Source: Octopus vulgaris
Lineage: Eukaryota
Reading direction: 5' to 3'
DNA: 64,000 nucleotides
NCBI GenBank assembly: GCA_951406725.2
Contig: OX597827.1
Coordinates: forward strand, 64,728,001-64,792,000
The notes under the pieces are model-generated. The model made no database searches. It was not told the origin of the DNA and saw only the letters and a program-made list of their open reading frames with translations. Shown one piece after another: positions 2,633 to 59,025 of the stretch. A program made the translations under genes and the position numbers. How positions within the stretch are numbered: position 1 is the stretch's first letter; the number at the start of each line of letters is the position of its first letter.

Positions 2633-3659
2633 TTTATCTTTACTCTTTAAACTCTTTTACTTGTTTCAGTCATTTGACTGCGGCCATGCTGCAGCACCGT
2701 CTTTTGTCGAGCAAATCGACCCCCAGGACTTATTCTTTGTAAGCCTAGTACTTATTGTATCGGTGTCTTTTGCCGAACCACTAAGTTAGGAAGACACAAA
2801 CACACCAGCATCGTTTGTCAAGCGATGTTAGGGGGACAAACACACACATATACATATAAATATACATATATACGACGGGCTTCTTTCAGTTTCCGTCTAC
2901 CAAATCCACTCACAAGGCTTTGGTCGGCCCGAGGCTATACTCTTTACTCTCTCTCTTTTACTCTTTTGCTTGTTTCAGTCATTTGACTGCGGCCATGCTG
3001 CAGCACCGCCTTTAGTCGCGCAAATCGACCCCCAGGACTTATTCTTTGTAAGCTTAGTACTTATTCTATCGGTCTCTTTAGCGAAACCGCTAAGTTACAG
3101 GGACATAAACACACCAGCATCGTTTGTCAAGCGATGTTAGGAGGACAAACACACACATATACATATAAATATACATATATACGACGGGCTTCTTTCAGTT
3201 TCCGTCTACCAAATTCACTCACAAGGCTTTGGTCGGCCCGAGGCTATACTCTTTACTCTCTCTCTTTTACTCTTTTGCTTGTTTCAGTCATTTGACTGCG
3301 GCCATGCTGCAGCACCGTCTTTTGTCGAGCAAATCGACCCCCAGGACTTATTCTTTGTAAGCCTAGTCCTTATTCTAACGGTCTCTTTAGCCGAACCGCT
3401 AGGTTACGGGGACATAAAAACACTACCATTGGTTGTCAAGCGATGTTGAGGGGTGCAAACGCAGACACACAAACACACACATATATATACATCTACATAT
3501 ATACGACGGACTTCTTTCAGTTTCCGTCTACCAAATCCACTCACAAGGCTTTGGTCGGCCCGAAAGTAGAAGTAGAAGACACTTGCCAAAGGTGCTGCGC
3601 AGTGGAACTGAACCCGGAACCATGTGGTTGGTAAGCAAGTTACTTACCACACAGCCACC
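2633..3659 (-). mobile_element. SINE family A: one full copy plus two head-less copies in tandem (~309 bp period)
   Basis: GTTTCAGTCATTTGAC recurs at ~2663, 2972, 3281. The tRNA-like head (minus strand TGGCTGTGTGG...GGTTCAGTTCC) is present only at ~3590-3659. Confidence 0.9.
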
Positions 3660-8069: not shown

Positions 8070-8694
8070 ATTGGTTTCTAATTTTGGTACTAATCCAGCA
8101 ATTTTGACCCCCTGTGTTTAACTGGTACTTATATTATCGACCCCGAAAGGACGAAACACAAAGGCGACATAAGTAGAATTTGAACTCAAAAGGTAAAAAC
8201 GTACGAAATGCCGTTAAGTATTTTTCTCATCCGTCTAACGATTCTTATTTCTTTATTGCTCACAAGGGACTAAACATAGAGGGGACAAACAAGGATAGAC
8301 AAAGGGATTAAGTCGATTATATCGACCCCAGTGCGTAACTGGTACTTAAATTATCGACCCCGAAAGGAGGAAAAGCAAAGTCGACCTCGGCGGAATTTGA
8401 ACTCAACGTAACGACAGACGAAATACGGCTACGCATTTCGCCCGGCGTGCTAACGTTTCTTATTTCTTTATTGCCCACAAGGGGCTAAACATAGAGGGGA
8501 CAAACAAGGACAGACAAAAGGATTAAGTCGATTAAATCAACCCTAGTGCGTAACTGGTACTTAGTTTATCGACCCCGAAAGGATGAAAGGCAAAGTCGAC
8601 CTCGGCGGAATTTGAACTCAGAACATAACGGCAGACGAAATACCGCTGAGCACTTCGCCTCGGCGTGCTAACGTTTCTGCCAGCTTGCCGCCTT
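8070..8694 (-). mobile_element. SINE family B array (one old plus two young copies head-to-tail)
   Basis: Three repeats of TATCGACCCCGAAAGGA at ~8136, 8352, 8567. Confidence 0.9.
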
Positions 8695-20419: not shown

Positions 20420-20472
20420 TCATTGGACTGCGCCCATATATATATATATATATTATATATATATATATATTT

Positions 20473-20603
20473 ATTATATAGAAGGAGCTTCTACAGGACT
20501 AGAACTGTTTCATTCAAGAGAAATCTTCAGGAAGCTCAGAGCTTCCTGAAGATTTCTCTTGAATGAAACAGTTCTAGTCCTGTAGAAGCTCCTTCTATAT
20601 AAT
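20473..20603. repeat. Perfect 131-bp palindrome (65-bp arms, 1-nt centre at 20538)
   Basis: Arms checked base by base. Confidence 0.97.
20539..20591 (+). ncRNA. Type I hammerhead-like motif (mirror copy on minus, 20485-20537)
   Basis: gagcttc CTGAAGA t-ttc-tctt-gaa-t GAAA cag-ttctagtc-ctg TA gaagctc. 7-bp stem I, canonical core, GUA site after 20584; U-U mismatch at the base of stem II. Confidence 0.75.
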
Positions 20604-20673
20604 GAATTAATTTTACTCTGCTATGTATTGAGTACCTTATTTACTGTGGTTAACCCCGAATCAACCCGGGACC

Positions 20674-20714
<41 letters not shown>

Positions 20715-32600: not shown

Positions 32601-33102
32601 ATTCGCTAAGCAGATGATACAACCCTGCTGGCAGAAAATAATAAGCATCTTATTCTGCTAGTCAAGAATGAGAGTGAGAAATTTGGGCTGTACCTCAATG
32701 TCAAGAAAACGAAGATCATGTCAACAGCAGCCACAACAAACATCAGCATCAAGATCGATAATGAAGAGATCGAAGTGGTTGATCATTTCATCTTCCTTGG
32801 CTCCAAAATAAATCGAGATGGTAACTGCACTCCAGAAATAAGGCGGCGGATAGTACTAGGCAGAAAGGCAATAGTCAGCATGAGCAAAGTCTGGAAGAGT
32901 AGAGACATCAGCCTCGCTACCAAATGCAGATTGGTGAATGCAATCGTCTTCCCAATAGCAACATATGGATGCGAGACCTGGACACTAAAGAAAGCTGACC
33001 AGAAGAGAATGTTTTCGAGCTTTGGTGTTGGAGAATACTTTTACGGATTCCATGGACAGCGAGGCTCACCAATGGAGAAGCTCTTAACGAGATCAAGCCA
33101 AA
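32601..33102 (+). pseudogene. RTE-clade LINE reverse transcriptase fragment
   Basis: IR*ADDTTLLAE (YADD with stop), GLYLNVKKTKIM, EVVDHFIFLGSKI, EIRRRI, TKCRLVNAIVFPIATYGCETWTL, then frameshifted FELWCWRILLRIPWTARLTN. Confidence 0.93.
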
Positions 33103-33104
33103 AC

Positions 33105-33305
33105 TATGTATGTGTGTGTATATGTTTGTACCTCCCCCAACATCGCTTGACAACCGATGCTGGTGTGTTTACCTCCCCGTAACTTTGCGTTTCAGCAAAA
33201 GAGACCAATAGAATAAGTACTAGGCTTACAAAAAATAAGTCCTGGGGTCGATTTGCTCGACCAGCTTGGTCACAGCAAATGACTGAAACAAATAAAAGAG
33301 TAAGA
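33105..33305 (+). mobile_element. SINE family A 3' half
   Basis: CATCGCTTGACAACCGATGCTGG...GACTGAAACAAATAAAAGAG. Confidence 0.85.
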
Positions 33306-34239: not shown

Positions 34240-34298
<59 letters not shown>

Positions 34299-34619
34299 GA
34301 CTCCGCCGGTTACGACGACGAGGGTCCCAGCTGATACGATCAACGGAACAGCTTGCTCGTGAAATTAACGTGCAAATGGCTGAGCATTCCACAGACACGT
34401 GTACCCATAACGTAGTTATCGGGGATAATCAGCGTGACACAGAGAGTGACAAGGCTGACCCTTTGAAATACAAGTACAACTCATTTTTGCCAGCTGAGTG
34501 GACTGGAGCAACGTGAAATAAAGTGTCTTGCTCAAGGACACAACGCGTCGCCGGGAATCGAACTCACAACCTTACGATCATGAGCCGAATGCCCTAACCA
34601 CTAAGCCACGCGCCCTCAC
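34299..34619 (-). mobile_element. SINE with D-type head and C-type tail
   Basis: Head matches 33410ff; 3' part (GTATTTCAAAGGG...CGTCGTCGTAACCG) matches 41335-41500. Confidence 0.88.
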
Positions 34620-34848
34620 TATATATATATATATATACAAGCACACCTACACATATGTCTATCTCTTCATCCTTTATCAATCTATCTATCTGTTTATCTT
34701 TAAGTATGTGTATATGTGCATTTTGGGGCGAAAACTGATGTTATTTAGCTCCCAGGAGACATCGTCTCCAGTTAGCTATACGAAACACGATCTGTCTGTA
34801 TATTTTCGTACAGGGAAGGTTAGCACCCCAATCCAGTACAAAGCAATA

Positions 34849-34895
34849 TCTGTGGACCGTACGGATTCGAGATTATTTCCCTTCGTCGGCAAAGA
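34849..34895 (-). ncRNA. Degenerate type I hammerhead copy
   Basis: Minus: tctttg CCGACGA agggaaataatctc GAAT ccgtacgg TC cacaga; homologous to 35364-35410, with core substitutions. Confidence 0.6.
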
Positions 34896-35363
34896 ATAAC
34901 TGCTAAATACCCGTTCGAAAATATATATAATTTTTAAGTGACTCACAGTCTCTGATTTAATAAAATAGAAACATTGCTGTTCCTAAATCTCTCAAGGAGA
35001 GATATTGAGTAGCAGCACTTTAAAGTAACGATGTTTTGCGAACCTTATTTGGCAGTTCCATTTTGGGGCGAATGCTATCGTAGTTTAGCTCCAGCTGGCT
35101 ATACGACACACGATCTGTGTCCTTATATTTTCAATCAGGACTAGTTATCACCACTCGCTCAGCACAAAACAGTATAAACGTTGCTGTTCCTAAATCTCTC
35201 AACGAGAGATATTCAGTAGCAACACTTTAAAGTAACGATTTTTTGCCAACCTAACATGGCAGTCCCATTTTGCGGCGGATACTGTTGTCTCTATTTTATT
35301 AGATCAGTAACTGCGAGTCACTAAGAAAATTATATATATTTTCGAACGGGCGTTTAGAGTTAT

Positions 35364-35410
35364 TCTGTGCTGATGAAGAGAAATAGCCCTGAAACTGTAC
35401 GGTCCACAGA
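35364..35410 (+). ncRNA. Type I hammerhead ribozyme motif, canonical core
   Basis: tctgtg CTGATGA agag-aaatag-ccct GAAA ctgtacgg TC cacaga. 6-bp stem I, near-palindromic stem III, GUC site after 35404; one mismatch in stem II. Confidence 0.82.
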
Positions 35411-35598
35411 TACTGCTATGTAATAGGTGGGGGTGCTAACCTACCCTGTTCAAAAATAAAAGGACAGATATCGTGTATCGTATAGCCAGCTGGGGACGAT
35501 GTCTCTTGGGGCTAAACAACTGTAGCATTCGCTTCAAAATTGGACTGCCACATTAGGTATGCAAAATATCGTTACTTTATATATATATATATATACAT

Positions 35599-36099
35599 AA
35601 GTAATGTTCGTAGCCTCTTCAAAATGGCTGTCCGTTCGAACGGACTTAACTGCGATTTTTAACCCCAAGAGGATATATCCTCTTGATGGTTAACGATGCA
35701 TAGCTGCATCCGAGATATTGCGAGCAGGGGACCGAACTCCTACCACCTGCTAGTAACGTTGGAAAATCAGCGACTGTAGGTCGCTTGAAACTGTATGTAT
35801 TGCAAACAGAAACGAGCTACAGCTATCTCTAGCGGAAGAGGTGTCCAGGACTGAAGAGAGGCAGAAATAGCCTGAAACTAGACTGGTATGCTGGTCCCGT
35901 CGCTAGAAGGTGGTAGGGGTTCGCTCCCCTGCTCGTAATATCTTGGATGCAACTGTACAACTGTACATCGTTAACCATCGAGTGGTGATGCTCTCTTGGG
36001 GTTAAAATATCGCTGTAAAATCCGTTCGGACGGTCAACCATGTTGAAGAGAACACGAACCGATCGGACAACCATGTCGAAGAAGGTACGAGCATTACTT
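35599..36099. mobile_element. Diverged inverted-repeat element with hammerhead in spacer
   Basis: 35599-35758 is the diverged reverse complement of 35898-36099. Confidence 0.85.
35845..35894 (+). ncRNA. Type I hammerhead-like motif
   Basis: ccagga CTGAAGA g-aggc-agaaata-gcct GAAA ctag-a-ctgg TA tgctgg. GUA site after 35888; one mismatch in stem I. Confidence 0.72.
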
Positions 36100-36156
36100 G
36101 TTAGTACTATTACTGCGTTGATTACTAAGAGAGATTTCAGAAGCACACACACACAC

Positions 36157-58229: not shown

Positions 58230-59025
58230 TTCTTATTTCTTTATTGCCCATAAGGGGCTAAACATAGGGGAACAAACAAGGACAGATTACATCAACTCCA
58301 GTGCGTCACTGGTACTTAATTTATCAACCCCGAAAGGATGAAAGGCAGAGTCGACCTGGGCAGAATTTGAACTCAGAACGTAGCGGCAGACGAAATACCA
58401 CTAAGCATTTCATCCGGCTTGCTAACGTTTCTTATTTCTTTATTGCCTTCAAGGGGCTACACAGGGGGACAAACAAGGACAGACAAAGGGATTAAGTCGA
58501 TTACATCGACCCCAGTGCGTAACTGGTACTTAATTTATCGGCCCCGAAAGGATGAAAGGCAAAGTCGACCTGGCGGAATTTGAACTCAGAAAGTAACGGA
58601 GACGAAATACCTATTTCTTTACTACCCACCAGGGGCTAAACATAGAGAGGACAAACAAGGACAGACAAACGGATTAAGTCGATTATATCGACCCCAGTGC
58701 GTAACTGGTACTTATTTAATCGACCCCGAAAGGATGAAAGGCAAAGTCGACCTGGCGGAATTTGAACTCAGAACGTAACGGAGACGAAATACCTATTTCT
58801 TTACTACCCACCAGGGGCTAAACATAGAGAGGACAAACAAGGACAGACAAACGGATTAAGTCGATTATATCGACTCCAGTGCGTAACTGGTACTTATTTA
58901 ATCGACCCCGAAAGGATGAAAGGCAAAGTCGACCTCGGCTGAATTTGAACTCAGAACATAACGGCAGACGAAATACGGCTACGCATTTCGCCCGGCGTGC
59001 TAACGTTTCTGCCAATTCACTGCCC
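58230..59025 (-). mobile_element. SINE family B tandem array (4 units, ~181-200 bp)
   Basis: CCCCGAAAGGATGAAAGGCA at ~58328, 58542, 58723, 58906. Confidence 0.93.

Follow-up and report, generated by a model that had tools for sequence, protein, structure and literature searches.

A decayed insertion of a dispersed 361-nt hammerhead repeat in the Octopus vulgaris genome, likely mobilised in trans by a Penelope-like protein

In the window, i.e. the stretch of 64,000 nucleotides of Octopus vulgaris contig OX597827.1 (64,728,001-64,792,000) that we have analysed, two hammerhead-bearing insertions stand next to each other, each consisting of two arms that are joined back-to-back. The first one is a copy of a dispersed repeat that we refer to as "family M", while the second one, located at 35599-36143 in a TA tract that is also used by M, is a copy of a paralogue, "family B"; the preliminary description of this DNA had missed the directly adjoining B insertion. 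The features of the locus are listed below, where "c" denotes a position in the consensus of the respective family.

34719..35175, minus strand: left arm of the M insertion, main piece; c193-361 followed by c1-324, i.e. more than one unit head-to-tail, with the normal 3' end missing
34849..34895, minus strand: left-arm hammerhead, decayed, with the core CCGACGA; cleavage predicted between 34855 and 34854
35173..35288, minus strand: 5' piece of the left arm (the "unit lacking hammerhead"); c299-361, c1-56
35286..35579, plus strand: right (inverted) arm of the M insertion; c49-361, ending at the short 3' end of the family, then (TA)n
35364..35410, plus strand: right-arm hammerhead with an intact helix I, a CTGATGA core and a GUC site; cleavage predicted after 35404
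35579..35598, no strand: (TA)n tract, the target common to the M and B insertions
35599..35753, minus strand: left arm of the B insertion; c204-359, stopping at the short 3' end of B
35758..36143, plus strand: right arm of the B insertion; c59-359, c1-43, stopping near the long 3' end of B before (CA)n
35845..35894, plus strand: hammerhead of B; canonical CTGAAGA core, GAAA, GUA site

The comparison of repeats within the window has confirmed the outline that had been drawn for the M insertion: a 340-bp period (34719 and 35059), a second unit without the hammerhead block, where the junction at 35173-35175 skips consensus c54-192 (~119 nt when measured against unit 1), and, at 35286-35579, an inverted copy with 81% identity to unit 1 (E 8e-65). 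The inversion junction is bridged by contigs of two DNA-like runs with 1 difference each, either run being a possible source of the assembly. The monomer itself had been put at ~340 bp; the period stands, but the full-length unit of the family is 361 nt, and both window arms carry the same 19-20-nt deletion, which is absent from the other 27 loci in the M alignment and indicates that the two arms come from one source; a similar junction occurs at locus L092. Copies of the family terminate either at c~361 or at c~57, so that the 40 nt with which the inverted copy closes represent a regular 3' end, one that unit 1 no longer has. Position 34721, previously proposed as the unit junction, is not a family terminus, and the course of the inverted copy across this point no longer speaks for a multimeric or circular template. 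The left arm, which adjoins a TG/TA microsatellite, is atypical in ending at c324. Its 5' piece stops at the long 3' end of family M and then joins c193; this c56-to-c193 junction, a single case that was found in none of 68 other M loci, connects the long 3' site with a position that lies 5 nt beyond the cut and may be a template jump.

The motifs CTGATGA (35370), GAAA (35391) and GTC (35402-35404) are indeed present in the inverted copy, while the reported occurrence of the hammerhead in both orientations is an appearance that results from the inversion: the motif lies on one strand only, with 0 antisense motifs in the consensus sequences of M, B and the sister family M2, described below. Both window copies are damaged: in the left-arm hammerhead, mismatches disrupt helix I, the foot of helix II and, with the loss of A15.1, the pair 15.1-16.1, and the right-arm hammerhead has an A-C mismatch in helix II. 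Neither of them folds as a hammerhead (z +0.5 and +0.1), and an Rfam scan of the window copies has returned no hammerhead match at the gathering score and none among 7 weak matches; the segment 35355-35420, suggested earlier as a cleavage substrate, is a decayed copy that would be expected to cleave weakly or not at all. The B hammerhead next to them has a GUA site, while GUC is the family majority, and one G-G mismatch in helix I.

The CTGATGA core, which had been taken as that of the family, is not the majority core of M, which is CCGACGA, with C at U4 in 23 of 29 rows. The frequency of C-to-T at U4 in M (0.18) equals the mean of the 13 other CpG cytosines (0.18), the value for non-CpG cytosines being 0.085; as unit 1 retains CCGACGA, the canonical look of the right-arm core is, by this comparison of sequences, most likely the product of CpG decay through two CpG transitions. 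The extension of this explanation to all canonical cores has been dropped, since the core of M2 is canonical. The U4C change is a natural viroid variant with lower activity in vitro (PMC3088659), and it recurs in the octopus genome, i.e. in CCGA cores of two other families and in CCGAAGA in the pLTR of a Penelope-like element (PLE). The ancestral AGGG/CCCT stem II and CCGTACGG stem III that had been proposed from the two window copies match the M majority. Together, the window locus is a fossil, an old and damaged copy of a dispersed repeat, which, once placed, decayed neutrally and is unlikely to cut itself or to form RNA circles.

The search of the genome (2.8 Gb, 227 contigs) with unit 1 has given 902 first-look candidates, the best 40 of which, when scored, yielded at least 70 matches besides unit 1 itself, at 71-88% identity. 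The majority unit is 361 nt long, with the core at c153 and the predicted cut after c187; the consensus has every tested pair of helices I-III, helix II being formed by AGGG/CCCT and helix III by ACCGTACGGT. An exact 34-nt pattern of the intact M hammerhead has 0 matches in the genome, and an exact 24-nt pattern has 4, so that M proper is without young copies detectable by exact patterns; judged by its sequences, family M is old. Contigs of presumed-RNA runs contain only partial matches to other copies of the family, and such contigs cannot show ends, strand or circles.

The sister family, M2, was reached via high-depth patches in DNA runs. Its 26-nt marker has 1,092 exact matches in the genome, the first 100 of which, as listed, include 16 inverted pairs and 1 same-strand pair. 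The unit of M2 (353 nt) is 83% identical to M, the copies are 94% identical to their consensus and the longest arm measures 787 nt (2.2 units); by these sequence measures, M2 is younger than M. The consensus has A-G at the base of helix II, and the core has U4 (CTGATGA-type) in 11/11 copies; a 32-nt core pattern has 85 exact matches, with CTGA (U4) in 83 of them, and two intact head-to-tail dimers with a spacing of exactly 353 nt (G000:C10:36491176-36491774 and G000:C14:78909377-78910059) occur among these 85. The search for intact head-to-tail arrays, which had been recommended, has yielded dimers in M2 and no long arrays. Family B (944 candidates) has a unit of 359 nt that is 62% identical to M. 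The three units (361, 353 and 359 nt for M, M2 and B; GC 0.44, 0.41 and 0.48) are non-coding and without a link to an ORF; the core, the three helices and the cut site have been kept across families that are only 59-62% identical.

The ends of the insertions follow a common scheme. At 61 loci, the 3' ends of M cluster at c~349-8 and c~47-70, i.e. at two fixed points ~57 nt apart, usually preceding (TA)n or (CA)n, while the 5' ends are variable; variable 5' truncation, partial tandems, back-to-back inversions and (TA)n targets characterise the copies, and those longer than one unit run on into another copy of the same unit, up to 787 nt. In back-to-back insertions, a long end is regularly combined with a short one: in 17/17 M insertions with both ends defined (69 loci, p 8e-6; 16 further back-to-back insertions with at least one undefined end stand outside this count), in 38/41 M2 insertions (57 loci, binomial p 5e-9) and in 5/6 B insertions (20 loci). 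Target duplications of at least 8 nt (8-15 nt in M2) are found at 24 of 59 M2 loci, two of which duplicate others, versus 2 of 59 shifted controls. The combination of a ~57-nt 3' tail at one end, 5' truncation, partial tandem and inverted 5' copy is that of PLE insertions, which are described as mostly 5'-truncated, with partial tandems, an inverted 5' copy and a tail at one end that is quoted as 30-40 nt (PMC8557442). The 5' ends have also been considered as marks of the cleavage site, and this idea has been set aside, its pile-up at c191-203 having arisen in a sample that was selected on c200-361. With a query starting at c235, 6/30 5' ends fall in these 13 nt, versus 5/30 in 31 nt downstream and 7/30 in 31 nt upstream, the samples overlapping; an excess is not evident in the position-ordered M2 sample, and these counts are suggestive of an excess just past the cut site that is at most modest.

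Folded as circles, the consensus sequences of M, M2 and B are predicted to form a long rod that extends helix I and is capped by hairpins, with z-scores of -8.7, -7.5 and -8.6 (40 shuffles). The antisense strands fold almost equally well (z -6.6 to -8.0), so that the fold energy alone does not set the polarity. When the structure predicted for M is scored on B, 19 double-sided changes are found versus a null mean of 8.4 (0 of 2000 shuffles reach 19), and 33 of 123 pairs are broken versus 49.5 in the null; as far as a test on three consensus sequences and one alignment can indicate, the fold of the unit in its full length appears to be under selection.

A candidate source of the enzyme is present in the genome, where the GIY-YIG scan has found at least 148 matches among 150 scored of 6,136 candidates, and ORFs with RT and C-terminal GIY-YIG domains reach 781 aa; their CxxxxCxxC linker fits Neptune/Nematis as these are described in PMC8557442. 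Such proteins could act in trans on M, M2 and B. A pLTR resembling the three families occurs at 0 of 38 distinct GIY-YIG loci (from the 148 listed, family B being judged among the matches listed), and the sampled PLEs have 3' UTRs without sequence relationship to these families. Conversely, at none of 145 repeat loci is an RT ORF continuous with the repeat; PLE ORF fragments lie in the fetched flanks of 4 of the 145, two of which, on re-fetching, have proved to be separate neighbours, the other two being judged by coordinates. Two sets of candidate partners, distant M-like relatives near PLEs (L073/L238, L193) and M or B copies near PLE fragments (L115, L050), have been rejected as separate insertions. 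That the family is non-autonomous, of the Penelope pLTR type and equipped with a type I hammerhead, as had been suggested earlier, is well supported by the PLE anatomy, the head-to-tail units and the lack of an ORF-linked copy at these 145 loci.

Among the PLEs of the genome, the one at L193 (2321-3086 and 4718-5483; G000:C14:47992500-47999500) is a young PLE with RT and GIY-YIG domains, whose inverted arms are 100% identical and whose pLTR hammerhead has the U4C core mentioned above. At L186 and L187 (G000:C16), a young family of PLEs with a 781-aa ORF is preceded by a separate open frame of 333-359 aa, with no Pfam match in the one that was scanned; a 456-nt direct repeat of 99% identity flanks both ORFs at L187, and a scan of this repeat for canonical hammerheads came out negative. 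PLEs do not usually have two ORFs.

Our preferred explanation, which we hold to be probable, is that the locus goes back to one insertion, since decayed, of the dispersed non-coding 361-nt hammerhead repeat, and that a Penelope-like RT/GIY-YIG protein likely provided for its mobilisation in trans. In the mechanism that we propose, a source with at least two units would be transcribed; the RNA would fold into the long rod that extends helix I, capped by hairpins, and would be bound by the PLE protein, probably as a dimer; the endonuclease would nick both target strands ~10-15 bp apart, and each nick would prime one cDNA, the long internal start site serving one of them and the short site the other; both cDNAs would stop early and be joined back-to-back, leaving one long and one short end. 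For arms that extend through an intact hammerhead or over more than one unit, the template would be an uncleaved multimer or a re-ligated circle. In vitro, both target strands are nicked and extended by a PLE enzyme, two internal RT start sites correspond to the tail, the uncleaved RNA is the dominant substrate and the protein is predicted to be a dimer (PMC11167929); the one-long/one-short ends and the target duplications match both the PLE anatomy and this two-start-site model. A test for a circular template by private variants has given similar differences within and between insertions, i.e. 7.0 and 10.6 versus 7.4 per 100 in M2 and 13.4 and 15.2 versus 16.6 per 100 in M.

The same anatomy would be expected if an autonomous PLE existed of which the sample contained only pseudo-LTR ends, truncated on the 5' side, and no full-length copy, given that most PLE insertions are 5'-truncated in this way and that only 38 of the 148 listed GIY-YIG loci (6,136 candidates) have been examined; we hold this to be improbable, since copies of more than one unit carry on with that unit again (up to 787 nt), none of the 145 loci continues into an ORF and the sampled PLE 3' UTRs are unrelated in sequence. 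It is far less probable that the inverted structure is a DNA-level fold-back or a MITE-like terminal inverted repeat with an incidental hammerhead-like motif: the arms do make long inverted repeats and the window holds no Rfam hammerhead, but the arm lengths and junctions vary by copy, the outer ends differ systematically, unlike those of terminal inverted repeats, and an incidental motif would not be expected to keep its core, three helices and cut site between families at 59-62% identity.

We give very little credence to the reading of the window locus as a working tandem retrozyme, transcribed and self-cleaving into ~340-nt circles, in spite of the canonical CTGATGA...GAAA...GUC core and intact helix I of the right arm and of the abundant circles that the 350-390 bp retrozymes of mussels yield (PMC7229834): the release of a circle requires two hammerheads on the same strand, while the window has one per strand, both damaged and failing to fold, and the divergence between the arms, ~20 per 100 non-CpG sites, is that of copies under neutral decay. 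Two consecutive units with a complete hammerhead each are absent from the window locus and occur in M2; the earlier suggestion of a retrozyme that gives rise to circles may hold at the level of the family, by analogy and on account of the intact M2 dimers, with no long arrays having been found. Beyond the trans-mobilised repeat that we favour, a wider picture is doubtful enough to be offered as speculation: M, M2, B and further relatives might belong to a radiation, within this genome, of hammerhead RNAs that encode no protein and circulate in covalently closed form, for which reason selection would maintain their whole ~360-nt fold; a PLE enzyme acting as a dimer would start simultaneously at both fixed sites, with one nicked strand for each, and a slowed U4C core, which spares the template from cleavage so that it can be inserted, would have become established in several lineages, a recently active autonomous PLE among them.

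The class to which the repeats belong is already known, i.e. animal retrozymes of the non-autonomous PLE type, and the locus is ordinary decayed repeat DNA. The families resemble the metazoan non-LTR retrozymes described by Cervera & de la Pena (2020; PMC7229834), e.g. the 350-390-bp repeats of Mytilus, in the unit of ~350-360 nt, the GC content of 41-48%, the lack of an ORF, the single type I hammerhead with a short palindromic helix III, the highly self-paired predicted fold, the head-to-tail units and the target duplications of >4 bp; they differ from them in that most copies are short back-to-back inverted fragments and not arrays, in the U4C core of subfamily M and in being known from sequence alone. 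Hammerheads of PLEs have been described in PMC4209133, and non-autonomous PLE derivatives have been proposed in bioRxiv 10.64898/2026.07.22.740005, which sampled vertebrates, insects and a coral, and no mollusc. The octopus families share with these derivatives (same preprint; PMC8557442) the partial tandems, the inverted 5'-truncated copy, the tail at one end, the microsatellite targets, the hammerhead ~170 nt upstream of the 3' end and the coexistence with RT + GIY-YIG elements, but no homologous pLTR donor is found among the 38 GIY-YIG loci, and the tail is ~57 nt and not 30-40 nt as in PLEs. The dimer by which the preprint recognises such elements is found in M2 and is lacking at the window locus; of 9 predicted retrozyme dimers in the preprint, only 1 cleaved. 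As in PAc (Poseidon of Anolis, PMC11167929), there are two 3' ends, corresponding to two internal RT start sites, AT-rich targets and arms that often keep the uncleaved hammerhead, but the PAc hammerhead overlaps the start of an ORF, which is absent here; the near-strict long/short pairing is quantified here from genomic copies, while the available sections of PMC11167929 hold no such count. The literature searched, with Repbase and Dfam outside its scope, contains no description that we have found of M, M2 or B or of octopus or cephalopod retrozymes; the words "hammerhead" and "ribozyme" have 0 occurrences in the cephalopod repeat paper PMC8967140.

The window also contains, at 20469-20678 between (TA)n tracts, a hammerhead repeat of a third kind, Y, which is very young and unrelated to the others. 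It consists of a ~141-nt arm that starts at helix I, back-to-back with an inverted short arm of 50-77 nt, and its type I hammerhead has a 7-bp helix I, a CTGAAGA core, U-U at the base of helix II and a GUA site. Among 580 candidates, the other 39 of the best 40 are 99% identical, most of them with the inverted arm; the 15 loci that were read have a common 5' start and keep the ribozyme uncleaved, with no ORF in the flanks and no direct tandem. Y may still be active and may lend itself better to experiments than the M locus. The near-strict long/short pairing in dozens of copies provides a clean genomic test of the two-primer, two-start-site model; the families bear on how PLE insertions acquire their inverted, one-tailed shape and on whether animal retrozymes are passengers of PLEs, which has so far been argued mainly from vertebrates, and the intact M2 dimers and the 99%-identical mini-family of the window are ready substrates for assays of cleavage, circle formation and trans-mobilisation.

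Further hammerhead-like families, with cores that are CCGA, TTGA-AA (U3-A8-like) or canonical, have been seen at L010:3162(-), L039:2512(-), L059:200(+), L047:2955(+), L073:27(+) and L066:3015(-), and L238 carries a tandem of 360 nt, 96% identical, from a family related to M. Elsewhere in the window, tandem repeats of 309, 215 and 182 bp with 2.6-2.9 copies occur at 2643-3563, 8119-8678 and 58467-58976; their sequence is SINE-like and is present in the flanks of other loci too, and they are putative octopus SINEs. A 190-aa open frame at 32610-33182 on the plus strand presumably corresponds to the C-terminal RT region of an RTE/BovB-type LINE. Just to the left of the M insertion, an element of ~325 bp, which we assume to be a tRNA-derived SINE from its appearance, lies at 34295-34620 between two (TA)n tracts.
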